This document shows positions 2,912-31,011 of a DNA stretch of 32,000 bases, in pieces. Below the pieces are notes generated by a model. The model worked only from the letters and a program-made list of their open reading frames with translations. It was not told where the DNA came from and ran no database searches. The stretch is from Candidatus Lokiarchaeum ossiferum. Lineage in GTDB: Archaea > Asgardarchaeota > Lokiarchaeia > Sigyniarchaeales > Promethearchaeaceae. The position numbers and the translations under genes are program-made. The first letter of the stretch is position 1; every line of letters begins with the position of its first letter. The stretch spans positions 1,170,001 through 1,202,000 of the forward strand of contig CP104013.1 in the NCBI GenBank assembly GCA_025839675.1. The letters run 5' to 3'.

Positions 2912-5900
2912 ATGGGACGATCAAAAGAAATTTTTAGAATTCCCAATATACTCCGTCGAAATGTTCTCACAGGGCATGATTCTCCTGTGGAAGCAATTAT
3001 TGTGCGAGAAAAATATATTTTCTCTGCTTCTCGGTTTGGGAAAATTATTATTTGGGATTTACATACGGGAGAAATCATAAAATCATTAGAAGGTCATACA
3101 AGTAGTGTAAATTGTCTTGATTTTCAAAAAGGGCAGTTAATTTCAGGGAGTAATGATAAAACAATCCGAATTTGGTCATGTGACTCAGGAGAGTGTATAA
3201 AAATTCTCCACGGTCATACTGCAGCAATTCTTTCTGTTAGTATACAAGACAATTATATTGCATCTGGATCAGACGATTCAACAATCAAAATTTGGAAATT
3301 AGACTCGGGAGAATTAATCCAGACAATAGAGGCACACTCTCGTAGTGTTTCTGGGGTTAAATTTTGTGAAGATAAATTATTTACCGTTTCATGGGATCAC
3401 TTTTTGAAAATTTGGGATATAAATTCTTGGCAATGTGTAGGATCCTATGAAGAACATTTTGATGCCATTGCTGCCATGGATGTATCCAGTAAATTTATTG
3501 TAACTGGGGATCAAACAGGATATTTCAATGTTTGGGATTCAAAAACCTATGAGCTTCTACATCATTTAAAACATCATCGATTATCAGTGATGGGAATAAA
3601 AATTGATGGAAATTATCTATATTCAACTTCAAAAGATAAAACTATCTTGATTACCGATCTCTCTACTGGAGTGATGGTAAAAAAACTAGAAGGCCACCAA
3701 GATGCAACAGTTGGAATCGATAAACTAGGAAATTTAGTTGTTACATCATCTGCTGATAAAACAATTAGTATTTGGGATGATTTTTCTTTGCACAGTCAAT
3801 ATAGAATCAAAGCTCATGATGGATTGATCTTAGGAACAAAAGCACAAAATAATACATTAGTTACAGCGAGTATTGACAATCTCTTGAAAATTTGGAATGT
3901 AAAAAAAGGAGAATTGATCAAAACCATCGCTCTTGAAGAAAATAGTTGGGTGTGGGGGTTGGCTTTTAGTAATAACCAAATTCTCGCTTCATCAGATGAA
4001 GGAGTTTATAGATTGTATGATCTGAATACGGGTCAAAAATTACTGGAACTAAAAGGACATGAAGGAAAAGTTTATCGTGCAATGATGCGCAATAATAAAG
4101 CGATTACTTCGGGTTGGGATACTACTTCTCGAGTTTGGGATTTAACCACGGGAGAATGCTTACATGTGCTTCGAGGACACACATATGCAGTTTATTCTTC
4201 TGTTATTACTGAAGATGGGATGTATGTTACCGGCTCATCGGATGGAACAATAAGAGTATGGGATTCTGATGGTCATTTAAAACATATTATTAACTATCAT
4301 CAAGATGAAGTATTTCATCTCGAGACTCAAGGGAATTTGGTAGCTTCTGCTTCAGGTGATGGAATATGTGGAGTTTTTAACTATAAAACGGGGGAAACAA
4401 TTGCCGAATTCGATGATCACACCGATCAAGTCTGGTGTGTTTTAATTCACAACGATATTGTGATTTCTGGATCTGCTGATAATAGTATTAAAGTTTGGAG
4501 TCTAAAAACCAAAGAATGTTTGGACACTCTTGAAGGTCATACCGATAATGTTAAGGATTTAGCTTTGAGTGGTAATTTTTTAATCTCAGGCTCATTAGAC
4601 TCAATCATCCGAATTTGGGATATTAGTAAATATTTTGATGAAAAATTGGAAATCGATGAGACTATTACGCAGGATTTTGATGTTTTGGGAGCACAAATTC
4701 AAATGGCGCGCACTTATGATTTAGTGCCTGCAGAATTAGGTTCGCCTGGAATAATTCGGATTCTCTATGGTATGAAACCACTCAGTCCTGATACTTCCTG
4801 TGACCATGAGAAATTTGTCTTAGTATTAAAGAAATCTGCAAAAACGTGGTATAATTTAGGAAAATTAGGGTATGCACCATGGTTATCAGATATTCCACGA
4901 GGAATTGAAGGAGGGACAATCCCAATTGGAGAAACAGAGACATTGGGTATTGTTCTGGAAGAATTTATGAAAGGATTTCGAGATAATGGAGATCTTTTTT
5001 GGATGGGATTACTAAGACGGTTTGGCAACAAAATCGAAACATTGTTACCCGAAAAATGGTCCTTTGATTTGAATTTTTCTGGGCAAGGACCTAATCCAAT
5101 TGAAGGCTACAAGTGGCATCATTTAGGTCCGCGCATTAATGAAGTGGAGTTAAAAGATCGGGAAGAAACTGCACTCATCTTTCAATTACGGTTAAAAAAC
5201 ATTAATGAATGGATATTACCATTAGTTAAAGCCTTTGAAATTCAAGTTAAAGACGATCGTGGGGATGTGGATTACATTAACTTTAGCAATTTCCGTCCAG
5301 ATAAAGATGGAAACTGGTGCTCTACAGCAATGTTCAAAATTGATGCAGGTTATAAAATGGAGCCAAAAGCCATCATCTTCTTCACAGATGTGAATGTAAT
5401 TTATGAAAGTTTATTAGCTCCCAGTTTTCAAGGGACTAATATTTTGAAGCAATTATCACTCCTTCGGCATGATAATGAAGATTTACGGGTGAAAGTTGAT
5501 ACTATACAACAACAATTTTTGCTACTCTCCGAAAAAATATCAACAACTAATACCAGCAAGATTGTTCCAAAGAAAAAGAACGATTTAGTCCCAAAAACCA
5601 TCCTCCCAGGATATCAGTTGCAAAATTTATATACATGCCCCAAAGGGAAGAAAATTTTCAAGCGAATTGAGAAACAATATCAAGAACCAGCCATTGGAAC
5701 GTTGAATGTGAATATTGGAGGATACTTCAATAAATTTCTTGAACACATTCAGCCAAAATTTATCCTCTTCACATCTGCTTCAAGTATTACTGCCGCTTTG
5801 ATTATTATTTTACTCTATATCCAAGGAATATTCCAGATCAATTTCTTAGGAACCTCCATTGAAATTGCTGGTAACGAGATACAGTGGGCTGAAATTATTC

Positions 5901-6004
5901 TGAATCTTCTAATTTATTTTGTTCTAATATTTGTGTTGGTTATTAGCATCTCCAATTGGATTCGCTTCCAGCATAAAAAGAAAAAACGCAGATCATTTAA
6001 TTAA
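2912..6004 (+). CDS. membrane-anchored WD40 repeat protein (two predicted 7-bladed beta-propellers, unknown central domain, 2 C-terminal TM helices)
   Basis: 1030-aa ORF. Residues ~20-570 (nt ~2969-4622) hold 14 recognisable WD40 units, for example GHTSSVNCLDF...SGSNDKTIRIWS, GHTAAILSVSI...SGSDDSTIKIWK and GHTDNVKDLAL...SGSLDSIIRIWD. Residues ~575-905 have no motif I recognise. Two hydrophobic helices sit near the C-terminus (FILFTSASSITAALIIILLYIQGIF and WAEIILNLLIYFVLIFVLVISISNWI), followed by a basic HKKKKRR tail. Confidence 0.85.
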   Translation: MGRSKEIFRIPNILRRNVLTGHDSPVEAIIVREKYIFSASRFGKIIIWDLHTGEIIKSLEGHTSSVNCLDFQKGQLISGSNDKTIRIWSCDSGECIKILHGHTAAILSVSIQDNYIASGSDDSTIKIWKLDSGELIQTIEAHSRSVSGVKFCEDKLFTVSWDHFLKIWDINSWQCVGSYEEHFDAIAAMDVSSKFIVTGDQTGYFNVWDSKTYELLHHLKHHRLSVMGIKIDGNYLYSTSKDKTILITDLSTGVMVKKLEGHQDATVGIDKLGNLVVTSSADKTISIWDDFSLHSQYRIKAHDGLILGTKAQNNTLVTASIDNLLKIWNVKKGELIKTIALEENSWVWGLAFSNNQILASSDEGVYRLYDLNTGQKLLELKGHEGKVYRAMMRNNKAITSGWDTTSRVWDLTTGECLHVLRGHTYAVYSSVITEDGMYVTGSSDGTIRVWDSDGHLKHIINYHQDEVFHLETQGNLVASASGDGICGVFNYKTGETIAEFDDHTDQVWCVLIHNDIVISGSADNSIKVWSLKTKECLDTLEGHTDNVKDLALSGNFLISGSLDSIIRIWDISKYFDEKLEIDETITQDFDVLGAQIQMARTYDLVPAELGSPGIIRILYGMKPLSPDTSCDHEKFVLVLKKSAKTWYNLGKLGYAPWLSDIPRGIEGGTIPIGETETLGIVLEEFMKGFRDNGDLFWMGLLRRFGNKIETLLPEKWSFDLNFSGQGPNPIEGYKWHHLGPRINEVELKDREETALIFQLRLKNINEWILPLVKAFEIQVKDDRGDVDYINFSNFRPDKDGNWCSTAMFKIDAGYKMEPKAIIFFTDVNVIYESLLAPSFQGTNILKQLSLLRHDNEDLRVKVDTIQQQFLLLSEKISTTNTSKIVPKKKNDLVPKTILPGYQLQNLYTCPKGKKIFKRIEKQYQEPAIGTLNVNIGGYFNKFLEHIQPKFILFTSASSITAALIIILLYIQGIFQINFLGTSIEIAGNEIQWAEIILNLLIYFVLIFVLVISISNWIRFQHKKKKRRSFN

Positions 6005-8741: not shown

Positions 8742-11700
8742 ATGTTATTGCAAAACTTTCCATGGCCACAAGTTATCAATTATAGCCTTACAGCGTTATA
8801 TTCACTCATAGCAATACTTATATTCGTAAAGATGTTGAAATATATTCGAAATGAGTTAAAAACTGCACCGAAATATACTTTTCGCCAAAAATTTACCAAC
8901 TTCAGCTCAGGAGTAATATTTAGCTTAATGACATCTCTTTCGATAATGTTTGTTCTGGCTTTGATCTCATCTGCTATTAGTAAAAATGGTCAAATTATTT
9001 TAAATTCGGATCAAATCGATACAGACATTTCCAAAATTTTCTTGAATGAGATATTAGAAGCATTCGCTTTTCCTAGATATTTACCAATTATCCTCATTAT
9101 CATCGCAATTTTTTCGTTGTTCTATCCACTCTATGAATATTTGAAACTTGCAAGTCCTGGACAACAAGGTGCCACAGAAATACAACGGCATTTGGAATCA
9201 AGATATATCGACCGATTTAATCCACCTTGGAGTTATATTGCAGCAATAGTTCTTTTCTTCTTCATTGTTTTACTCGCCCCAATAATCACTTCGATAATTG
9301 CAACAAACCAATGGAATATTCCAGAAAATATCACTGATAGTTGGGCGATTCGTCTAATTTTCTTTGTATGGTTATTGTTAGGACCAATGTTTTACTTGAG
9401 TTATTACTCAAATATTGGAGCAGTTCAAACATTCTTTAGAGGACGAAGAGTAAATTTAAAAAATGATAAAAAATTGGCAATATTTTATGGGGTAGCAATT
9501 CTAACCTTCATTTCTTCGGTCTGGTCCTTTTTCCAATATATTATTCCCATCATAACAAATACTTATCCTAAACCAGGTATAGATTTTTTTGAATCTCAAA
9601 CTGATTTTGTAAACACATTGTTTGATATCTTTGATTTTTTAAAAATAGTCGATAAAGAAGGGCAAAGACCTAAAATAAGATTATTCTTTGCTGTTTTTCC
9701 CATTGATTTTCTTGGATTTATTTTAACCACAGCTGGTTTTGGTCTTATTGGAATATATTCCAAATTTATCAGTAAGGAACCATTAAATTCCCCCAAAATG
9801 GTATTATTCGCAGCGTATATTATTTGCGGTATAGCATTTTCCATCTTTGTTACCGCTATGGTAAAATGGCCCTGGATTTTTCCCGATGAAAATCTCCAAA
9901 AAATTGGATTAGATTTGATTTTATCTCCCGATGCTCGAAACCCAGAATGGACTGCAGAAAGGATGTGGGCAGATCAGGAAACAGTAGTTCGTTTATTTAG
10001 TACCGCAATTTTAGTGCAAAAAATATTGAATCTCATATTTTTAGGCAATTTTCTTTTCCATCGTAAAGAATTACGTCAAGAAGCGGATGAATGGGCACTA
10101 AATAAAGCCATATTAGAAAATGATTTTGAAACAATCAACAAATATAAGGTACATGAAAGTGTAGAAATGCGTAAAATTGTGGCTAATTCAGTTATTCGCT
10201 ATGTTAAAATGAAAGACAATCTCAATGTTGAATCTTCCGAGCAAATCTCAAAAATTATGGAGGAACTTCTTTCCGATGAAAATACAGAGATTACATCTAT
10301 CATTAAAGCACATCAATATGAAATCATGTTGAAATTAGATGAAGATTCAATCATCGCATCCATAATTAATTTGCTTAAGTCTGAGGATGCAAATAAAACA
10401 AAACAAGCCATAAAACTAACCCGACAAGTAGGAAAACGAAATATCGTAAATTTAAGTAAAATTATAGAAGAATTGAAACAAAAACAAATTCCAGATGTTG
10501 CTTTGAATAAGATTTTTAATGTAATAGCCGAATTTGATAGAGAAAATCATGAATATCTACGTGATTTGATTATACCACTTCTATCGGATGATTATGAACC
10601 TTTCATTCTTGCTTCGTTCCAGATTTTAAATGCCGCAACAAAGAATTTTCAAAAGAATTTGGATGTACTAACACCTTATTTTCATACTCTTCTTCAACAT
10701 CACAGCTCAAAAATCGTTGCCAGGACCTTAGATACATATTCAACTTTGGCATCTTCAAATCAAAATGCCGTTGCTACTTTGATGACTGAATTTAATCATA
10801 TTGATCGAACTGAGAATAACATTATTCAGGAAAAAATTGCCACAATCGTGAAATTTTGCATGATTCAAACGAAATGGTTTGAAAACTTATTTGATTACAT
10901 GGAAATCTATTTGAAAAGCACAGAAAATCAAGTGATTAGTGACGCAGCCATCGGTTTAGGTAGTCTTTCCAGTAATATCAGTCCCGAAGAGTTTTTCAAC
11001 CGAATTTTTCCCCATTTCAAACAATTAGTTCAACATTCTTCAACAGAAGTGAAGAAAGCAACTTTAGCATCTTTGGTGATTATTGCCCAAACTCGCCCAG
11101 AGATCTATAAAGATGAAAGATTTCAACATTTGTTCAGTGTACTAATCATTGATGAGGATGTGGATATTCGTCATCAAGTTTATCGCTTCTTTATTGAGGG
11201 CGATCCACACATTTTCATCAACGATATAGTTGCCATTCTTTCAGCACCATTATCAATTCAGATTCGGATCGATTTAATGAACATTTTGGCAATTGTGGCA
11301 GAAAAAATAGTTCCCTACATGGACGAAGTGTTATTATTTGAAGTTCTGAAGAAACAAGAGTTTATCCAGTCAAAAACACTATTTGGGTCAGAATTAAAAT
11401 CACTTCAAGAAGATAACTCAAAAATATTTGGCTTCCACCGAAATTTTGAAGAAATCAACTTGATGGGAGCAACTGTGGCATTAATTTATGATTTATTATA
11501 TTTTGCTCCGAATAAAATGCCTCAAATCGAAGATTTCTTAAATGAAAATGTTAAACATGGGGGAGATCTGGCCCTTGCTAAAAAATTCGAATTTTATTGC
11601 AAACAATCTTTAGATCATCTTGATGGAAAAACATTTATTGGTCAATTTGTTGATGTGAAAGAAACACTTTCCATTTTGGACAAGAACATCTATATAGTCA

Positions 11701-13208
11701 AACCTTTAGCACAAAAAGTTGTCGTGGAATTTTTATGGCAAGTATTTAAAAAAGATGTAAATTATCATAAGGAAATCCTTGTTTTACTTGTAGCAATTAG
11801 CTTGCAAAAAGATATGCCAGATGCTAATACTCGAAAAATGACACTTATATGCATGGCATCCATTTTTGCTCAATTTCCAGATATATATTTTGGGGAGATC
11901 CAATTCCAAAATTTAACCAACTTAAAAACTGCAACCGTAAATCCTTTTGAAAAGTATTTCAAACCCTATTTGCTAAAAAATATGGATTCAAATCAAAAAG
12001 AAGTACAAGATGGAATCACAACAGCCCTATATAAAATTTTGGAGGCTACAGATCAAGAAAAATTTATTCGGAAGCTTTTAATTGAAGCCATTAATCAATC
12101 CAAAGGAATAAATGCGAAAATAACAGCAATGAAAGCTATTGTTTCACTTCCGATCAAAATTGATGATAAAGAAACCACAGCAACATTGCTTCGGCAACAA
12201 TCCTCTAAAAATATCGAAGTCAGAGCTCAAGCAATACGATCGTTAGGACAAATTATCCGAACGTATCCATCATATACAACCCGAAAACATTCCCGCCAGA
12301 TTAGATCCTTGAAATCATTGATCTATCGAGTTTTATTCAACCCATATAAACCCAATGCACCGATCGAGATAAAAAAAGCAATATTGGAACATTTAGGGAC
12401 AATAACTCTCATTCAACCAAATATTCCAGTTTGTTTATCCACAATTGAGGCCATTGGCCTTGATCCTGATCCAAAGATTGCCATACAAGCCGTGGAGATC
12501 TTCTTCCAATATGTTGATTTATATCCTGATAAAATGGCAGAAATTATGGTGGTCTTCCGTCGGCTTTCAAATTCACCTTTTGTGGAAATAAATCGGTTAA
12601 TTGTCCAAAAATTGCTAGATCTTCAGCAATCCGGGATGAAAATGACTGCATTATATTCAAGTTTAATCAAACTGGCCACTTCACCTTCAAAAGAGATCCG
12701 AATTATCAGTTTACAAGCATTCTATGATATTTCAATTAAAGTTCCTGAACAGTTTGACTTCTTTATAGGTATTATAATGCAGTTATCAACCAACCGCCAG
12801 CCTGAAGTACGCCAAGATGCATGTAACTTCTTATTCAAATTTGCTTATTTGAAAGGAAATGAACTCAAGCCCCTTATCAAGATTTTAGCACGTCTCCAGA
12901 ATCTTGCTGGGGATCCAGATATAGGTGTGCGAATTCAGCTATCTAAAAATCTTCAACAAATGGTAGACCATCTGCCCCAACAAATTAATGATGTGCTTCA
13001 AATCATCTATACTTTGATCCGGGGAAGCGGAAATCACAATGAAATTATTCAAAATTTAGCTTTGACCTTAAAAGGTATATGGAATACCCATCCAGATTTA
13101 AATGAAGAAATGTTAGCCAAACTCCAACGGTTTTATAAAAAATCCCAAAATGCTATCTTGTATACTTTAGTTAATGATTTAAAATCTGGAAAAGTCACAA
13201 TTAAATAA
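8742..13208 (+). CDS. giant polytopic membrane protein with ~1000-aa HEAT/ARM-like alpha-solenoid
   Basis: 1488-aa ORF. Residues ~10-400 (nt ~8769-9950) contain about 10 hydrophobic helices. From ~residue 455 (nt ~10104) onward it is all-helical, with many HEAT-type signatures: HESVEMRKIVANSVIRY, HSSTEVKKATLASLVII, DEDVDIRHQVYRFF, SSKNIEVRAQAIRSLGQI, SPSKEIRIISLQAFYDI, NRQPEVRQDACNFLFKF and DPDIGVRIQLSKNLQQM. Confidence 0.85.
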   Translation: MLLQNFPWPQVINYSLTALYSLIAILIFVKMLKYIRNELKTAPKYTFRQKFTNFSSGVIFSLMTSLSIMFVLALISSAISKNGQIILNSDQIDTDISKIFLNEILEAFAFPRYLPIILIIIAIFSLFYPLYEYLKLASPGQQGATEIQRHLESRYIDRFNPPWSYIAAIVLFFFIVLLAPIITSIIATNQWNIPENITDSWAIRLIFFVWLLLGPMFYLSYYSNIGAVQTFFRGRRVNLKNDKKLAIFYGVAILTFISSVWSFFQYIIPIITNTYPKPGIDFFESQTDFVNTLFDIFDFLKIVDKEGQRPKIRLFFAVFPIDFLGFILTTAGFGLIGIYSKFISKEPLNSPKMVLFAAYIICGIAFSIFVTAMVKWPWIFPDENLQKIGLDLILSPDARNPEWTAERMWADQETVVRLFSTAILVQKILNLIFLGNFLFHRKELRQEADEWALNKAILENDFETINKYKVHESVEMRKIVANSVIRYVKMKDNLNVESSEQISKIMEELLSDENTEITSIIKAHQYEIMLKLDEDSIIASIINLLKSEDANKTKQAIKLTRQVGKRNIVNLSKIIEELKQKQIPDVALNKIFNVIAEFDRENHEYLRDLIIPLLSDDYEPFILASFQILNAATKNFQKNLDVLTPYFHTLLQHHSSKIVARTLDTYSTLASSNQNAVATLMTEFNHIDRTENNIIQEKIATIVKFCMIQTKWFENLFDYMEIYLKSTENQVISDAAIGLGSLSSNISPEEFFNRIFPHFKQLVQHSSTEVKKATLASLVIIAQTRPEIYKDERFQHLFSVLIIDEDVDIRHQVYRFFIEGDPHIFINDIVAILSAPLSIQIRIDLMNILAIVAEKIVPYMDEVLLFEVLKKQEFIQSKTLFGSELKSLQEDNSKIFGFHRNFEEINLMGATVALIYDLLYFAPNKMPQIEDFLNENVKHGGDLALAKKFEFYCKQSLDHLDGKTFIGQFVDVKETLSILDKNIYIVKPLAQKVVVEFLWQVFKKDVNYHKEILVLLVAISLQKDMPDANTRKMTLICMASIFAQFPDIYFGEIQFQNLTNLKTATVNPFEKYFKPYLLKNMDSNQKEVQDGITTALYKILEATDQEKFIRKLLIEAINQSKGINAKITAMKAIVSLPIKIDDKETTATLLRQQSSKNIEVRAQAIRSLGQIIRTYPSYTTRKHSRQIRSLKSLIYRVLFNPYKPNAPIEIKKAILEHLGTITLIQPNIPVCLSTIEAIGLDPDPKIAIQAVEIFFQYVDLYPDKMAEIMVVFRRLSNSPFVEINRLIVQKLLDLQQSGMKMTALYSSLIKLATSPSKEIRIISLQAFYDISIKVPEQFDFFIGIIMQLSTNRQPEVRQDACNFLFKFAYLKGNELKPLIKILARLQNLAGDPDIGVRIQLSKNLQQMVDHLPQQINDVLQIIYTLIRGSGNHNEIIQNLALTLKGIWNTHPDLNEEMLAKLQRFYKKSQNAILYTLVNDLKSGKVTIK

Positions 13209-20688: not shown

Positions 20689-21177
20689 TGTAAGAAAAAG
20701 AAGTCAAAATTGCACTATTTTGAATTTTCGAATTAGTATAAACTACTTATACTCTATTTCCCATAAATAGTTAAGAGCAAAGAAAAATTATCTCGAAGAT
20801 ATTGTTAATATTTTGTTTTTAGATGATAAGATAAAATAATAGAGATTTTTGCAAAAAATTTTTTAAATTATTTCTATTACAAACGGTTCTATCTTGAGGA
20901 AAAACTCCAGTACTTCAAGAGCTTATTATAAAATTTATAAGACATTTTTCAATGTCTTCAACCATTTTAAGATTGGAATGATTCGTATTATTTTTTATTA
21001 TTTTGTATCCCAGATCAATCAATTTTTTTTTTGATCCTTTAGATGAGACGAAAGTGTCAAAATCAAAATAATACGATTTCCTATTTTTTACCCAAAAAGA
21101 ATACTTCTTAGGGTAGAATAAGATTCGATCCTATAAAGTATTCCGAATTCCTTCAATAATTCTTCTAATCATCGATT

Positions 21178-21192
21178 CCAAAGGTATAAGTA
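21178..21192 (+). promoter_or_regulatory. candidate BRE/TATA (CCAAAGG-TATAAGTA) for the structured RNA
   Basis: TATAAGTA at 21185-21192 is centred ~27 nt upstream of 21215, where the GC-rich structured segment begins. A second T/A-rich box, TTTATTATTATTA (21203-21215), is an alternative. There is no experimental support. Confidence 0.3.
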
Positions 21193-21214
21193 ATTAGAAC
21201 ACTTTATTATTATT

Positions 21215-21440
21215 AGCCAGCAAGGAAACCTACGTTTGTCAGGTATCATTTGATCTGAAAGGGACTCGCCATCCCGCAACCCCTGGTGTTTTATCGGGGG
21301 TTGCATCTTGGCAAGTCCCGGACGGAACAAATTACATAGATCAAACACGAACAATATGGTGGCTCATATTGAAAACATATGGTGGCACATATGGTGGCAA
21401 GGACCCTGGCAAGGGCCTGTCAAACGTAGGAAAATCCTTT
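21215..21440 (+). ncRNA. structured RNA candidate of unassigned family (stand-alone ncRNA or 5' leader of tfb)
   Basis: G+C is ~47% by hand count over 21221-21440, against ~25% in 21061-21120. No credible ORF exists on either strand. The helices are nested and mutually compatible. The closing stem is 21222-21226/21435-21439 plus 21229-21243/21416-21430 (14 WC pairs plus one U-U). Next is 21249-21256/21338-21345 (8 bp). An interrupted hairpin runs 21261-21266/21314-21319, 21268-21271/21309-21312 and 21276-21284/21296-21304. Two hairpins lie at 21352-21358/21365-21371 and 21376-21381/21388-21393, and a short CCC/GGG stem at 21404-21406/21413-21415. The strand call rests only on the upstream TATA-like box. 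Confidence 0.55.
21353..21399 (+). repeat. three copies of ATATGGTGGC, including a perfect tandem 12-mer CATATGGTGGCA x2
   Basis: The copies are at 21354-21363, 21377-21386 and 21389-21398. The tandem unit occupies 21376-21387 and 21388-21399. Confidence 0.9.
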
Positions 21441-21521
21441 CGGTAAACACGAAAAGTGATAGCAATGACTGAAACAATTGGAAACTACCACAAAAAGAAA
21501 CACCTTGGCGCAACCTTCGTC

Positions 21522-21576
21522 CATGACCCATCAACCGGATCAGATCATATCCCGATGGATTCGATTGATGGGCATG
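21522..21576 (+). promoter_or_regulatory. 18-bp interrupted hairpin enclosing a candidate tfb start codon
   Basis: CAUG(A)CCCAUCAA at 21522-21534 pairs with UUGAUGGGCAUG at 21565-21576, giving 12 bp with A21526 bulged. After a C/A mismatch, CGGAUC at 21536-21541 pairs with GAUUCG at 21558-21563 (6 bp, one G-U). The 16-nt loop at 21542-21557 ends with the in-frame ATG at 21555-21557. Confidence 0.45.
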
Positions 21577-22502
21577 TGACACCTTCTGACACCTGTGAAT
21601 CAAAACGACAATACAAAAAGAAGGATCGTTCACGACAAATTGGAAAAGTTGAAATTGATAGAATCGATTGCACCGATTGCGGATCTGAAGAACTTATTCA
21701 AGATGATGTGACAGGAGATTTAATTTGCACAAGTTGTGGTATGGTCGTAGAATCACATATGTTTTTCACAGATAAATCTGCTATCAGTTTTACCAATTAT
21801 GATGATGAAATAATTAAAAAAAACTCAGTATCTGCCAAACGCAAAGATCCTATTAGTGAAAAATTATTCCAAAAGCTAAAAAAAGCAGAAAAATGGACTC
21901 ACACATGGGCAGACATTCATCAAATTATTATGAAGAAAGAAATTAATAGATATATTTACCAATTAGAATTACCTGAATACATTGGAGAAAGTGCTGGAAA
22001 TCTGTACGCGAAAATTTATCGCAAAAATGCAATTCAAGGAAGAGGAATAAAAGCAATGGTCGCTGCCACGGTGTATACCACTTGTAGACAACACCAAATT
22101 CCGGTGTTCTTCCAAGATATTGAGAAAGTTAGCAAACAAGAACATTCAACCATCCGAAAATGCTTTACTTATATCATGGATAATTTCCAAATTACACTTC
22201 CTGTTTTAAGTGCGAGACAATTTATTCCGCAATTGGTAGCTAAACTCCAATTTTCGGATTTATTGGAAAAAGTGGCCACAAAAGTCTTAACTCGATTAGA
22301 ATCAAGCCAAATTGGAGATTCAATTAATAATCCAAAACATTTGGCATCCATATCCATCTTTTTTGCCTACAACATTATGAAAAGGGCAAATAAGCTGAAT
22401 GTGAGTATCACCCAAAAAGATTTTTCCAATAAAGTCGGCATGAGTGAAACAACTCTCCGAAAATACAAAAGAATATTCCAACAAGCAATCACAGTAAGAT
22501 AA
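21555..22502 (+). CDS. tfb: transcription initiation factor TFB (TFIIB family), divergent paralog
   Basis: A zinc ribbon (CTDCGSEELIQDDVTGDLICTSCG) is followed by two cyclin-fold repeats (GRGIKAMVAATVYTTCRQHQIPVFFQDIEKVSK...IRKCF and PKHLASISIFFAYNIM...TQKDFSNKVGMSETTLRKYKRIF). The ORF is open from the GTG at 21456 (ATG at 21465), but that stretch overlaps GC-rich structured sequence. Starting at the ATG at 21555 gives 315 aa with the ribbon ~40 residues in, closer to typical TFBs. The in-frame GTG at 21576 is another option. The stop and reading frame are secure; the start is not. Confidence 0.85.
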   Translation: MDSIDGHVTPSDTCESKRQYKKKDRSRQIGKVEIDRIDCTDCGSEELIQDDVTGDLICTSCGMVVESHMFFTDKSAISFTNYDDEIIKKNSVSAKRKDPISEKLFQKLKKAEKWTHTWADIHQIIMKKEINRYIYQLELPEYIGESAGNLYAKIYRKNAIQGRGIKAMVAATVYTTCRQHQIPVFFQDIEKVSKQEHSTIRKCFTYIMDNFQITLPVLSARQFIPQLVAKLQFSDLLEKVATKVLTRLESSQIGDSINNPKHLASISIFFAYNIMKRANKLNVSITQKDFSNKVGMSETTLRKYKRIFQQAITVR

Positions 22503-22719: not shown

Positions 22720-23019
22720 ATGACCGCAAAATCTAATCCCGTAAAAAATTCTCGAATATCTTTTAGTCAAAAAAAATTGGATGAGGAACTCCAAAAGACA
22801 TACCATTTACAAATGAAATGGATTCAGGAAGAATCTAACATTCAGTTAAATCATATAATCGATCAATTCACCCAAAAATCTGCTAAGAGGATTGAAAATC
22901 TTTCGATTAACTTGCTTCCCTATTTTAAAGAACAATTAAACTCAGATAATGCCCAAATTCGGGAATTAGCGGCCCGTGGTTTAGAAGAAATCAAAAAAAA
23001 TTCCCCTCATTTAGTTTGA
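22720..23019 (+). CDS. hypothetical helical protein (99 aa)
   Basis: An all-helical, charged ORF. The C-terminal DNAQIRELAARGLEEIKK resembles a single HEAT-like turn. No family is recognised. Confidence 0.4.
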   Translation: MTAKSNPVKNSRISFSQKKLDEELQKTYHLQMKWIQEESNIQLNHIIDQFTQKSAKRIENLSINLLPYFKEQLNSDNAQIRELAARGLEEIKKNSPHLV

Positions 23020-23056: not shown

Positions 23057-26000
23057 TTAAACACCAGATACTCGTTTTAAAAACTCAAAAAGCAGGGTAA
23101 GTTTTTCAGAAAGTGAAACCAACTGTTCACCAAGATAATTGAAATGTTCTTCATTATTTTCAGTGATTTTTAGTAATTTAAAAAGAAATTTATTCATAGT
23201 GTCTTGATCAGTCTGAATTTTCAATATTTCATCCCGTTTGGCAAAGTTATTCAAAACTTCCATCACAGCTTCGTGGTTTGAGATCAGAGTATCCTGCTTA
23301 GCTGAAGCATTTATACTTGGCTTAAGACTTTCTTCTAAGGGATTTTTGATCTGTGAAACCATAATTTCTGCAAGATTGATTAGATTTTCCTGAGTTGCAG
23401 TATTTCCAATGAGATCTTGGACCGTACCTAATTTTGTTTGATTGACGAGTATTTTTTGTTTCATGTCTTCCGATAAACCCAGAAGATCATTATGTTGCCG
23501 CTCAAAGTAGTGTTTAAAACTATTTAGAGATTCTTCTTTAGCAAGCCTGTTTAAAGGCATCTTGATTTGATCCAAATACCGATCCCAGGCACCTTCCGAT
23601 ACATTCTCATAGATTGAATTTAAGGATGTGGTTGTGAATTCTGAAAATTTGTCAAATACCTTTGAATATTGTTCAAAATCTTCCCGGTTGGCTTTTGTTG
23701 TATCTTGTACAAGAGTCTGAATCGCAAATAATTCTTTCAAGTCCGCACGAACTTCAGCTTTCATTTTATCTAGAGAATCTTCCTTGGCGGTTAAGAGCAA
23801 GGCTTCTTCAATGATTTCAGGCAAACGTTCTTTCACAAGTAAATCGATCGATCTTTGAAAACTGGAAAATTCTTCGTGATTGGGTAAATTTGAAACGACT
23901 TTGCGAGTGTCTTGAGCCACCGACATCAAATTAGTGTGATTTTCATGTGTTTTTCCAATATTTGCAAGAATTTGATTAATGGAAATAGCAAAATCATGAG
24001 ATATTGAATCCAAAACTTGTTTTTGTGCTAAAGGTTCGGTACACGAACGAACCACAGGTAATATAGCATTTTTTATTTCACCTAGAAATTCTTTATACCA
24101 TTCGGGAGAAGTATTCTTTTTAATCTCAACCATGGTACTCTCTAAAGCAACTTTTCCATTCAGATTGTTAAGTGTTTTTTCGATATTTGTTGTATTTTCT
24201 AAGGACCGACTGGAAAATTGACTTAAATCTTGCTTTCCTTGATTTACTTGAGCATATAAATCTTTTGTGACGAATTGTACTAATTCAGGAACTTTTTGTG
24301 TACTTTTATTCAGATTTCCAAGTTCTTCTTGGGTTTTTGATAGGAGTTGAAAATGTTGTAGATGTTCCTTCTCAAGTTTACCAATTTCCCCCATAATTTC
24401 GGTTTTAATAGTAGGAAAACTTTTTTCATAGAGTAGTCGAAATTCATTTAAATTTTGATTTTTAGCAACAGTATTGAGTTGTGTATTAACTTGATTTAGT
24501 TTTTCACTCTGTTTAATCAGTAATTCTTTGTTAGCAGAAGAAACGGTGAAATTTTCCTTAGAAGCGCTTAAAACTTGTTTTGTATCTTGTTCCAAGCGGT
24601 TAGGTATAATTGTATCGGTATTTTGCCGTATTTTTTCAATTATTCCTTGGTTAGGCAGTTTTGCGACATCTTGACTAATTCTCAAGGTTTTTTCGGAGAG
24701 ATCTTTTACTTCTTTTTGGGTAGCTAAGGGAGAAATCAATTTTTGAACTTCGGGAATCAAAGTTTTGACAATTGGAGTCGGATCTTGTTTTTGGATAGTC
24801 TTTTCCAATTGTTTCAAACTGCTTTCCAGACTTAATTGAGCCACTTGGGAGGATAATTGAGCTAAAGTTTTTTGAATGCTAACAACTTGGGCATCTTTGG
24901 GTGCTGTTTCAACATATTTAGCCAAATTTTTCTGTAATTTGTTGATTTCAGGGAGAGCGTTAATCAAATCCAAATCTTTTCGGAGTTTTTCTAAATCAAC
25001 TGCTTTACTAGTTTTCGATATCTCTGATTGGAGAACACCTAGGCCTTCTCGGATCGAATTAATACTTTTTTCTTTTCCTAAAGCTGCTGTTGTCTGTAAT
25101 ATGGATGTATCAATATACTTCCCCAACTTAGAATTATTTTCTGAAATAGATTTTGTAACTTGAGAAACTAAGGGAGTGAAAAACGCAGGTGATTCGACTT
25201 TTCGAATATGATCTTCCATTCTTTGATTCGATTTGAGTAAAGTATTCTTTTCCAAGGAAACAAGCCGTTGATCAACATTTTGAATCATTTGTGGAATCGG
25301 AGAATTTTCAATTTTATTTGAAAGAAGTGCAGTATTTTTGTTAAGCTCCTTTCCAAATTCGATTTGTAGTTCACGCACCATATTTGGAACTGGAGATTCA
25401 TTAATCTTTTGTTCAATTTGACCGACTTTTCGTGTAATATCTGTCCCAATCTGTTTCTGTAAAGATTCTAACATAGTAGGAAGTGGAGAAGATTCTATCT
25501 TCCGATAAATAGATTCCAGTTTTTGGACAAGCGATTCATACAAATTTTTTTGAAGATTTTTAACAAGATCTGCTGAGGCTAAGATTTTTTGGCCAGCTAA
25601 TAATTCTGTGGTACTTAATTCCATTTTATTATGGAGTTTATCAGAGATATCGAGAAGCATCTTATTAAATTCTGCAATAAATTTCGCAAATTGCTCCTTA
25701 CCTAACAAACTTTGTAAGGGAGCCAAAGAATTTAAAATGGTTTTTGTATCGTTTTCTAAAGTTTTAAGAATTTTCTTTGAACTTTGTTCTATTTCAGATG
25801 AATTTAAGTGAGATACATTGGAAGCAAACTTTTGAAGATGGGTTTGAAAATCATCAAAACCTTCACCAACAGTCTTAATTAAATCTCCAAGCACTTCAGT
25901 CTGGTTTTTATTCGCATTTTCAACCCCTTTGGAAAATTTGGATATTTCCAGCTTTACATTCTCCAAAACCAGTTTGTTTTCTTTATGGGCGAGGTTTAAA

Positions 26001-26143
26001 TCGTCAAGCTCATCATTAAATTTCTCTTGAGTTTTTAAATATGCTTTTTGTTTTGGGAGTTCTCTAATAATTTCCTCCTTTAATTGTTCCATAATCTTGA
26101 CTATTTCTGCGGAATCACTTTTTACCCGCCCATTTTCCATCAT
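23057..26143 (-). CDS. giant all-alpha-helical repeat protein (1028 aa), no TM, no recognised domain
   Basis: Composition is rich in Lys/Glu/Gln/Leu/Asn/Ser throughout, with no hydrophobic helices. Clear internal repeats occur at residues 215-333 (nt 25145-25501): RKIESSPLPTMLESLQKQIG, QKINESPVPNMVRELQIEFG, NKIENSPIPQMIQNVDQRLV and RKVESPAFFTPLVSQVTKSI, spaced ~30-38 residues apart. Degenerate Pro-initiated helices continue downstream. Confidence 0.8.
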   Translation of the reverse strand: MMENGRVKSDSAEIVKIMEQLKEEIIRELPKQKAYLKTQEKFNDELDDLNLAHKENKLVLENVKLEISKFSKGVENANKNQTEVLGDLIKTVGEGFDDFQTHLQKFASNVSHLNSSEIEQSSKKILKTLENDTKTILNSLAPLQSLLGKEQFAKFIAEFNKMLLDISDKLHNKMELSTTELLAGQKILASADLVKNLQKNLYESLVQKLESIYRKIESSPLPTMLESLQKQIGTDITRKVGQIEQKINESPVPNMVRELQIEFGKELNKNTALLSNKIENSPIPQMIQNVDQRLVSLEKNTLLKSNQRMEDHIRKVESPAFFTPLVSQVTKSISENNSKLGKYIDTSILQTTAALGKEKSINSIREGLGVLQSEISKTSKAVDLEKLRKDLDLINALPEINKLQKNLAKYVETAPKDAQVVSIQKTLAQLSSQVAQLSLESSLKQLEKTIQKQDPTPIVKTLIPEVQKLISPLATQKEVKDLSEKTLRISQDVAKLPNQGIIEKIRQNTDTIIPNRLEQDTKQVLSASKENFTVSSANKELLIKQSEKLNQVNTQLNTVAKNQNLNEFRLLYEKSFPTIKTEIMGEIGKLEKEHLQHFQLLSKTQEELGNLNKSTQKVPELVQFVTKDLYAQVNQGKQDLSQFSSRSLENTTNIEKTLNNLNGKVALESTMVEIKKNTSPEWYKEFLGEIKNAILPVVRSCTEPLAQKQVLDSISHDFAISINQILANIGKTHENHTNLMSVAQDTRKVVSNLPNHEEFSSFQRSIDLLVKERLPEIIEEALLLTAKEDSLDKMKAEVRADLKELFAIQTLVQDTTKANREDFEQYSKVFDKFSEFTTTSLNSIYENVSEGAWDRYLDQIKMPLNRLAKEESLNSFKHYFERQHNDLLGLSEDMKQKILVNQTKLGTVQDLIGNTATQENLINLAEIMVSQIKNPLEESLKPSINASAKQDTLISNHEAVMEVLNNFAKRDEILKIQTDQDTMNKFLFKLLKITENNEEHFNYLGEQLVSLSEKLTLLFEFLKRVSGV

Positions 26144-30060: not shown

Positions 30061-31011
30061 TTAATCAGAATCTTGAATATTGGATTCCCAAATCGGTTTG
30101 AAATTCATCATTTTTTCCATGGAACATTTGGGACATTGAAAGAGATCCGCCGAGGTCTCATAGTACATCGTGGATCGTAAAAAACGCATTTTGGTTCCAC
30201 ATTCACGACATATTTCATGATCTGCTTTCTGATTCTGCACATTAGACTCATTCTCCATAATTGGTGTGGTCATGGGAACAAGTTCATGAGTATCATCAAT
30301 CACAAAAAAACTATAAGTTGCTGAAGGATTAAGATTCAATTCTAGAGGTACTTCAACGAGCTGACGTTTTTTTTCCAAACCTTGCACTTCAAACGAAAGT
30401 TCTTTAACCTGTCCCTTAAACTTTTGATGGAGAGATTGAATAATTTCCATAGGATAAGGTATTTCCTTGGAAAAATAATTGTGGATGAGAAAGTCACGAA
30501 TTTCTTGCCCTTTGATTAAAACTGAGTGGCATTGATCACAAAGAGAAAAATCAATACTTTTCTCGAGGGTCTGACATGAAGAACAATAACTAAATTGAGA
30601 CACATCGATTAAATCTAAGACTTCCACCATGTTCTTTTTTATTTCTTGAAAATTTTCTTGTAACTCATTCAATTTAGAAACGGAGGAAATGATTTTTGGG
30701 AGATCTTCTTCTCCAAAATCAGTAATTTTATTCAATGAAGAATTAGTCTGGAAGATGGAGGCTTTTATTAGCAAGATTAAATGATTTATATGAGATTCTG
30801 CTTGAGAATACGATACATTTTTAGGTTTATTGGAAGTATCTACTTGAGTAAAAATAGGAAATGACGCAGAAATTTGACCTACAATTTGAATAATTTGAGC
30901 AACCCAATGATCAATCAAATTTTTCGGTGAAGTTTTTTGCTCAGACATAGAAATTTGACTCTCGGGAAAATCTTCAATGGAATTTATCTGAGTATTTTTT
31001 TGGGGTGCCAT
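30061..31011 (-). CDS. hypothetical protein with two Cys4 zinc-ribbon-like motifs
   Basis: 316 aa. The motifs are CSSC-x12-CDQC in the middle and CREC-x21-CPKC near the C-terminus. The N-terminal half is helical, and no family is recognised. Confidence 0.6.
   Translation of the reverse strand: MAPQKNTQINSIEDFPESQISMSEQKTSPKNLIDHWVAQIIQIVGQISASFPIFTQVDTSNKPKNVSYSQAESHINHLILLIKASIFQTNSSLNKITDFGEEDLPKIISSVSKLNELQENFQEIKKNMVEVLDLIDVSQFSYCSSCQTLEKSIDFSLCDQCHSVLIKGQEIRDFLIHNYFSKEIPYPMEIIQSLHQKFKGQVKELSFEVQGLEKKRQLVEVPLELNLNPSATYSFFVIDDTHELVPMTTPIMENESNVQNQKADHEICRECGTKMRFLRSTMYYETSADLFQCPKCSMEKMMNFKPIWESNIQDSD

Follow-up and report, generated by a model that had tools for sequence, protein, structure and literature searches.

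A candidate structured 5' leader conserved ahead of a divergent TFB-like gene in Candidatus Lokiarchaeum ossiferum

What function could be served by the ~230-nt RNA domain that lies between a conserved promoter and a divergent TFB-like gene on the plus strand in Candidatus Lokiarchaeum ossiferum B-35? This element was noticed in a reading made from sequence alone (the sequence-only reading) of a 32-kb stretch of the genome, which we call the window and whose coordinates are used throughout. Asgard archaea are the closest known relatives of eukaryotes, and their gene regulation is therefore of interest. On the whole, we lean towards reading the element as a ~250-nt 5' untranslated leader of a lineage-specific TFB-like mRNA, which would exert post-transcriptional control in cis. 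It can be proposed with high confidence that a plus-strand RNA structure has been selected and is transcribed together with tfb, the start and the co-transcription being deduced from signals in the DNA. The docking of factors on this leader is put forward with much lower confidence.

The window was compared with five related loci (L006, L007, L008, L009, and L010), each of which carries its own tfb-like gene. These six loci represent four independent lineages, namely the window clade (the window, L006, and L007), L008, L009, and L010. The segment 21215-21445 (231 nt) had a minimum free energy (MFE) of -95.6 kcal/mol compared to -64.0 ± 4.8 kcal/mol for its dinucleotide shuffles (n = 200). The z-score was -6.56, and none of the 200 shuffles folded as well. 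The reverse strand of this segment had an MFE of -87.4. The diverged leaders of L008, L009, and L010 also folded well, with z-scores of -4.49, -5.13, and -5.92, respectively. Moreover, the MFE of the plus strand was below that of the minus strand in all six loci, and the one-sided changes in the stems (G-C to G-U or U-A to U-G) are wobble-compatible on the plus strand only. These results agree with the sequence-only reading, which had favored the plus strand and a structured non-coding RNA (ncRNA) or leader rather than random spacer; compensatory changes in the closing stem and in the GUGGYW hairpin, described below, point the same way. All of the helices that it had claimed (a closing stem, a second segment with a U-U, an inner stem, an interrupted hairpin, AU-rich hairpins, and a CCC/GGG stem) were recovered in place, and the G+C enrichment that it had counted by hand was also found, with 48% in the domain and 21-28% in the upstream spacer.

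The closing stem P1, whose core in the window pairs AAGGA (21222-21226) with UCCUU (21435-21439), was found in every lineage in the same register. In each case, the predicted transcript begins with 3-13 nt that pair to a segment whose end lies 17-24 nt ahead of the AUG, and the pair probabilities are mostly above 0.9 across the lineages. Pairing of the 5'-end bases into the last 50 nt before the AUG was matched by 9-37 of 300 dinucleotide shuffles per lineage. In a register-fixed alignment, which is biased towards pairing by the picking of the 3' strands from individually predicted folds, 85% of the P1 cells pair and four of the ten pairs are changed on both sides. Counted from 21214, these double-sided changes are C-G/A-U at position 5, G-C/A-U/U-A at position 7, and G-C/G-U/A-U at position 11, while a C-G/G-C change at position 4 occurs in L008 alone, where the base is bulged in the MFE fold. 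The covariation score of P1 was 0.41 compared to 0.18 in shuffles, none of 500 shuffles scored as high, and the slid controls were all far lower.

The second helix, P2, consists of 14 Watson-Crick pairs and one U-U and is 93% complementary. In L010, its UGUCAA/UUGACA part is kept through G-C to A-U changes, and in L006 and L007 a C to U change in the 3' strand opposite G gives a G-U pair. Near-perfect 15-bp inverted arms of this kind, flanked by A-runs, might also be the terminal inverted repeats of a domesticated or decaying insertion resembling a miniature inverted-repeat transposable element (MITE), or belong to a DNA operator array in which the ATATGGTGGC repeats are protein sites, with the fold as a by-product. 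The threefold direct repeats and the invariance of the 5' half without compensatory evolution would suit such an origin, which we consider very doubtful. The sequence-only reading had itself raised the MITE, and the 32-kb window and ~50 kb of the related loci yielded no second copy. Matches to one arm in a viral collection were isolated 15-mers, and the hairpin motif was absent from the viral contigs. The pairing runs beyond the supposed terminal repeats into P1, the arms covary with L010, and the flanks are only A-runs that continue as an inverted (AAGGA/UCCUU) and not a direct repeat, without a convincing target-site duplication. The better folding of the plus strand in all loci and the G-U compatibility of the changes speak against both the insertion and the operator array. 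Furthermore, the hairpin loop is invariant and the stems vary, which is the reverse of a palindromic operator.

Inside P2, the helices are less uniform. The inner stem P3 was borne out in part: its strands are complementary and are both invariant in three close relatives, and it is used in the L007 MFE fold, whereas the single-sequence MFE of the window swaps UUUGAUCU/AGAUCAAA for AUUUG/CAAAU plus UCUG/CGGA, an alternative that is broken by L007 substitutions. Hairpin A, with three helices in the same arrangement, is common to the window clade and L010, the L010 version being GGUCU-A-GCCAA-CCC-CAACCCCA...UGGGGUUG-UA-UUGGU-C-GGAUC. MAFFT misaligned the 5' half, and the two versions were aligned by hand from the predicted helices. 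On that alignment, two of the 18 comparable pairs differ on both sides, three show compatible one-sided changes, and none is broken. The apical helix GCAACCCCU/GGGGGUUGC that had been read from the sequence is present and can be lengthened by four further pairs (GGUG/UAUC) that leave a UUU loop, a small correction to the loop that had been drawn.

Leaders of the window clade carry two GUGGYW hairpins, those of L008 and L009 carry one, and that of L010 has none. The loop is invariant, the stems are 100% paired, and three of the six pairs are compensated (AUAUG/CAUAU compared to AAUUG/CAAUU). Among 422 kb scanned, such hairpins were found in these leaders only, together with one chance 5-bp match. 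The conserved GUGGYW loops look like protein-recognition sites. As a side observation, UGGCAAG is present in three copies (~21310, 21395, and 21408), each able to pair with GGGACUCGCCA (21261-21271); alternative pairings or traces of internal duplication are possible. The coordinates of the features are collected in Table 1.

Table 1. Features of the promoter, the predicted RNA domain and the gene downstream, in window coordinates.
Feature	Position	Strand	Description
Distal conserved upstream block	21043-21090	+	Palindrome GACGAAAGTGTC then AAAATAATACGATTTCCTATTTTTT; from the six-locus alignment
Core promoter	21178-21196	+	CCAAAGGTATAAGTAATTA; purine-rich stretch resembling a B recognition element (BRE), plus TATA element
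Predicted transcription start	21215-21216	+	Purine after T, ~26-27 nt past the TATA centre; placed by archaeal promoter geometry
P1, 5' strand	21216-21226	+	GCC.G.AAGGA; closing stem predicted to sequester the 5' end; pair probabilities 0.66-0.99
P2, 5' strand	21229-21243	+	CCUACGUUUGUCAGG
P3, 5' strand	21249-21256	+	UUUGAUCU; base of hairpin A
Hairpin A core	21261-21319	+	GGGACU-C-GCCA-UCCC-GCAACCCCU...GGGGGUUGC-AUCU-UGGC-A-AGUCCC
GGAACAAA motif	21324-21331	+	In all four lineages (GGGAACAAA, at most 1 mismatch), in differing structural contexts
P3, 3' strand	21338-21345	+	AGAUCAAA
Hairpin B1	21352-21371	+	CAAUAUG-GUGGCU-CAUAUUG; 7-bp stem, GUGGYW hexaloop
Hairpin B2	21376-21393	+	CAUAUG-GUGGCA-CAUAUG; 6-bp stem, GUGGYW hexaloop
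Third GUGGCA copy	21394-21399	+	Without a stem of its own; within the threefold AUAUGGUGGC repeat
Small hairpin	21404-21415	+	CCCU-GGCA-AGGG; conservation weak in L007
P2, 3' strand	21416-21430	+	CCUGUCAAACGUAGG
P1, 3' strand	21435-21444	+	UCCUU.CGGU
A-rich single-stranded linker	21445-21464	+	GUGAU resembling a Shine-Dalgarno (SD) motif at 21456-21460, 9 nt before the AUG
Divergent TFB/TFIIB-like gene	21465-22502	+	NEF87_000967, UYP44682.1; 345 aa with a 65-aa basic N-terminal extension

The interior of the domain bears on the question of whether it could be a riboswitch, in which the multi-helix junction would be an aptamer and a ligand would stabilize P1 and alter the translation or decay of the tfb-like mRNA. 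A P1-closed multi-stem junction directly upstream of the ribosome-binding site, very high nucleotide conservation among the close relatives, and the UGGCAAG and AUAUGGUGGC repeats, which permit alternative pairings, would be in keeping with this explanation. Aptamer cores are usually the most conserved part of a riboswitch. Here, the interior differs by lineage, and what the lineages have in common is limited to P1, the linker, and short motifs: hairpin A is confined to the window clade and L010, the GUGGYW hairpin is lacking in L010, and a CUGGGAA helix occurs only in L008-L010. Furthermore, no expression platform was seen (the ribosome-binding site is open in the six loci and no terminator was found) and no Rfam riboswitch matched. 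A riboswitch is thus highly improbable. The window-clade leader is also 60-90 nt longer than the leaders of L008-L010.

The repeats raise the further question of upstream translation. The AUAUGGUGGC repeat is present in three copies, at 21354, 21377, and 21389, and the window contains an upstream open reading frame (uORF) at 21356-21472, MVAHIENIWWHIWWQGPWQGPVKRRKILSVNTKSDSND (MVAHIENIWWHIWWQGPW...), with five Trp (UGG) codons derived from these repeats. Its UGA stop overlaps the tfb start, five of the six leaders keep a GUGGC preceded by AUG (UUG in L008), and tandem UGG codons are reminiscent of attenuation leader peptides. The AUGGUGGC repeats could therefore start short uORFs whose translation gates access to the tfb AUG. 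This control is most unlikely, since the peptides, frames, and stops differ among the loci (including the Trp-rich MVAHIENIWWHIWW... of the window) and a 1-nt indel in L006 shifts the frames. The window frame is open in L006 and L007 with other ends and is not conserved in L008-L010, the IWW frame of L009 has no start, and L010 lacks the motif. In addition, no SD-like motif precedes the upstream AUGs, and the sequences on either side of GUGGYW covary as hairpin strands, a feature for which a uORF has no need. A coding explanation in general was rejected, because the uORF peptides, an upstream-extended tfb frame, and the minus-strand ORFs are not conserved in frame or peptide. The two minus-strand ORFs dismissed as junk by the sequence-only reading (21169-21354 and 21364-21633) are present, and their protein is not conserved beyond near-identical relatives; what other loci share with these ORFs is confined to nucleotides of the promoter.

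The domain is 94.4% identical to the window in L006 and 88.3% in L007. The third codon positions of tfb are 68 and 54% identical, respectively, and the flanking intergenic DNA is 45-59% identical. By these identities, the domain is under stronger purifying selection than the coding sequence. Among the tallied stem substitutions of the close clade, five of seven are wobble-compatible or pair-gaining on the plus strand.

The promoter is conserved as well. The TATA element GTATAAGTAWTTA is invariant in all six loci, where it lies exactly 24 nt upstream of CRAGRA, the beginning of the closing stem; the TATA-like box noticed in the sequence-only reading, which spans 21184-21196, is therefore real and conserved. 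A U-R-R is fixed at the predicted start position in the six loci, and the gap between TATA and AUG is long in all of them (189-282 nt). The promoter motif has a single exact match within the window and is therefore not a generic promoter consensus. The tbp gene of the window (ATG at 2042) has its TATA ~35 nt upstream, hence an ordinary short leader of ~12 nt, and a structured leader of the tfb type is absent there. When the promoter-plus-CRAGRA pattern was searched in metagenome contigs, 69 matches were obtained, none of them adjoining a TFB, and these were attributed to chance.

Upstream of this promoter, ~125-170 nt before the predicted start, a distal block comprises a GAC(N6)GTC palindrome followed by AAAATAATACGATTT, and its AAAATAATA is invariant in the six loci. 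It may tentatively be regarded as a candidate operator, upstream activating sequence, or distal promoter of the same regulatory region. Between this block and the TATA box, an inverted repeat with 21-nt arms (21099-21143, 81% complementary) was observed, of which only part (TAGGGTAGAATAAGAT...ATCCTA) is kept in L006 and L007. This repeat was the cause of a spurious mir-384 match in Rfam (E = 0.93).

The relation between the domain and the gene was read from the signals between them. No TATA-like sequence is present from the domain to the tfb AUG, no run of at least five T occurs from the TATA box to 21762 (T6 runs come after the tfb stop), and no plus-strand terminator-like site was found before the tfb coding sequence. 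The simplest account is therefore that the domain forms the 5' leader of the tfb-like mRNA. The sequence-only reading had already remarked on the missing oligo-T tract and suspected co-transcription with tfb, and these signals are consistent with both points.

The domain could also be an independent or processed stable small RNA (sRNA), cut from or terminated before tfb and acting in trans, for example as a partner or decoy of the transcription machinery, with tfb expression as a read-through by-product. Several properties of the element are those of stable RNAs. Its 5' and 3' ends are paired into a self-contained domain, it is more conserved than the coding sequence with a nearly invariant 5' half, and its G+C enrichment is what stable structured RNAs typically show in AT-rich genomes. 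However, neither a terminator nor a T-run follows the domain, tfb has no promoter of its own and begins ~20 nt after the domain in all loci, and the element is found only ahead of one gene family. We therefore regard the sRNA as unlikely, though the least so of the alternatives, and infer a leader in preference to it.

The product of NEF87_000967 was first annotated in GenBank as a hypothetical protein. Pfam recognized a TFIIB zinc ribbon and one TFIIB cyclin repeat in UYP44682.1, whereas NCBIfam NF001658 (TFB) gave 121 bits compared to a cut-off of 384. The best solved relative was human TFIIB (residues 64-339, 1e-17). Only five relatives were found among 5.8 billion protein clusters (92, 85, 67, 63, and 58% identical), and the next-closest TFBs were 22-25% identical. 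A profile search with the six TFBs returned no further member of the subfamily, only TFBs at that 22-25% identity, and no homologue turned up when a genome contig collection was scanned for an exact 23-mer and for a TFB peptide. Judged by its domains and similarity, the product is a very divergent TFB paralogue in the TFB fold family.

The 65-aa N-terminal extension is lineage-specific and carries an invariant basic patch, KRxYxKKDRS, and the leader and the divergent TFB subfamily were found only together. An autoregulatory circuit can be imagined on this basis, in which the basic extension would bind its own leader, at the GUGGYW loops and in the 5' half, as an RNA operator or partner. We rate this as quite unlikely. 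If it were true, it would reveal an RNA-controlled or RNA-associated paralogue of a general transcription factor in the closest cultured relatives of eukaryotes.

For the cis-acting leader that we favor, the following mechanism is proposed. Transcription would start ~26 nt past the conserved TATA, at ~21215, and the 5' nucleotides of the transcript would pair with a segment ~20 nt upstream of the start codon, forming P1 and then P2. This pairing would close a stable domain of several helices, among them hairpin A and one or two short GUGGYW-hexaloop hairpins, and directly 3' of the domain an A-rich linker with the SD-like GUGAU and the AUG would be left open. The closed 5' end may shield the mRNA from 5'-end-dependent decay and thereby set its lifetime. 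The conserved loops, the GGAACAAA motif, and the frozen 5' half might be where a protein or RNA acting in trans docks to tune translation or decay, and such a factor would probably be bound via the GUGGYW hairpins.

Linkers of 17-24 nt with GUGAU or GUGAA are present in all loci, and an SD-like GUGAU at -9/-10 was found in four of the 19 long ORFs of the window (cbiM, tbp, the tfb-like gene, and ORF 30061-31011). SD masking or an anti-SD within the domain was rejected, because only chance-level 5-nt complementarities at non-homologous positions were found and the ribosome-binding site is predicted to be open.

Several observations weigh against the proposed leader. The ribosome-binding region is not sequestered (mean P(unpaired) 0.55-0.66 in the six loci), and no simple on/off mechanism is visible from the predicted folds. 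The role of GUGAU is uncertain, because Lokiarchaea reportedly make little use of SD motifs (PMC12993045), with which its presence at only four of the 19 long ORFs agrees. The covariation statistics are weak, since only six loci from four independent lineages are known, and the P1 alignment is biased towards pairing. The close clade contains no double-sided changes, and eight of the 75 pairs predicted for it are disrupted in one sequence. The first 94 nt, which make up the 5' half, are near-invariant and the 3' half holds nearly all of the changes, for which structure alone offers no explanation; this distribution points to a sequence-specific constraint beyond pairing on the 5' half. Finally, the conserved AT-rich distal block, ~140 nt further upstream, could be an alternative promoter.

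Known RNA classes did not account for the domain. At the gathering score, Rfam gave no match in the whole window or in L006-L010, so the family remained unassigned, as the sequence-only reading had stated. A permissive Rfam scan of 21100-21560 returned only noise (E ≥ 0.9), with nothing that took in the domain as a unit. Neither a tRNA nor a tmRNA was detected, and inspection revealed no kink-turn (K-turn), C/D, H/ACA, or bulge-helix-bulge motifs. A C/D sRNA was rejected because RUGAUGA is missing from 21215-21445. As to an H/ACA sRNA, hairpin A is followed by an ACA, but the internal loop measures 4 versus 18 nt and there is no K-turn. An RNA thermometer was rejected because GUGAU and the AUG lie outside the domain with P(unpaired) of 0.55-0.66, and the domain itself is stable at -95.6 kcal/mol. 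A T-box-like pairing of UGGUGGC with the tRNA 3' end GCCACCA was rejected as well, since the UG lies in a stem and three nucleotides would have to invade the acceptor stem. An iron-responsive element (IRE)-like hairpin was rejected because the loop is GUGGYW and the stems have five to seven continuous pairs without a bulge.

In the neighborhood of the tfb-like gene, two ORFs are syntenic with it and have no Pfam or NCBIfam match, a 99-aa ORF at 22720-23019 on the plus strand and a convergent 1028-aa protein at 23057-26143 on the minus strand. Counterparts of the small ORF were found in L006 and L007 (87 aa in L007); those of the large convergent gene occur in L006, L009 (1110 aa), and L010, and L007 has a truncated version. 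Also encoded in the window are TBP, chemotaxis proteins, a WD40 beta-propeller giant of 1030 aa (2912-6004), and HEAT-repeat proteins, one of them 1488 aa long (8742-13208). The WD40 and HEAT domain repertoires of these two large proteins are eukaryote-like, which is typical for Asgard genomes. The tfb-like locus L009 (logan SRR22273277_1270) is 63% identical and has a leader version of its own; it stems from the sample whose sequencing also yielded the window contig and has no NCBI entry, which suggests a second Lokiarchaeum-like organism in that sample.

Literature searches found no paper on untranslated regions (UTRs), start sites, or ncRNAs of Lokiarchaeum, and turned up no description of cis-regulatory or structured ncRNA in Asgard archaea beyond the universal RNAs. 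We regard the element as a new family of RNA within a known general class, the structured mRNA leader; to date it comprises six Lokiarchaeum-like loci and is tied to one divergent TFB subfamily, and the six leaders supply a seed alignment for it. With a defined promoter, a predicted start, a helix map, and conserved loop motifs in a cultured strain, the candidate is experimentally tractable. It could reveal post-transcriptional control of alternative general transcription factors in the Lokiarchaeum lineage; if it is only an mRNA-stabilizing leader, it would be a modest addition to a known class.

The element shares single properties with several known systems. Like MITEs, it measures ~200 nt, is non-coding, and has 15-bp inverted arms. 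Unlike them, it is single-copy in the sequence searched and occupies an orthologous position in six loci, and its arms covary and its pairing continues beyond them. Klein, Misulovin, and Eddy reportedly described G+C-rich structured ncRNAs (Hgc) in AT-rich archaeal genomes in 2002. The domain is likewise a G+C island with a strong fold in an AT-rich genome, but it has no match to an Rfam Hgc family, its host is a mesophile, and it is joined to a coding sequence and is not a stand-alone gene. With riboswitches it has in common a P1-closed multi-helix junction in a 5' leader beside the ribosome-binding site, whereas its junction core is not conserved across lineages and it has no recognizable expression platform.

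In the eukaryotic IRE and iron regulatory protein (IRP) system, 5' UTR hairpins with an invariant hexaloop and covarying stems are protein sites, and the GUGGYW hairpins may be compared with these as a hypothesis. The IRE has a CAGUGN hexaloop and a bulged C five pairs below it. The Lokiarchaeum loop is GUGGYW without a bulged C, and the putative sites are embedded in a larger closed domain, ~70-110 nt away from the AUG, so that the hairpins are not members of that family. The bacterial ompA and cspA 5' UTRs also act in cis and combine a base-paired 5' terminus with an open ribosome-binding region that follows it. They belong to another domain of life with another decay machinery, and the Lokiarchaeum element is much larger and multi-helical, with no temperature-dependent alternative fold identified.

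The closest comparison within the archaea is with the methanoarchaeal 5' UTRs. The statement of the sequence-only reading that long structured leaders are uncommon in archaea was too general, since many mRNAs of Methanolobus and Methanosarcina have long 5' UTRs, and the stabilization of mRNAs by such UTRs is documented in methanogenic archaea (PMC5378194). The leaders of mtaA/mtaC in cold-adapted methanogens and those of the Methanolobus psychrophilus survey are likewise structured, exceed 150 nt, and have a proposed role in stability or translation and not in transcription (PMC5378194). The Lokiarchaeum leader has no sequence or structure homology with them and belongs to the phylum Asgard, and a stabilizing role would be assigned to it by analogy. 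It differs from them in that it is predicted to lock its own 5' end in a closing stem, is more conserved than the coding sequence that follows, and precedes a paralogue of a general transcription factor.

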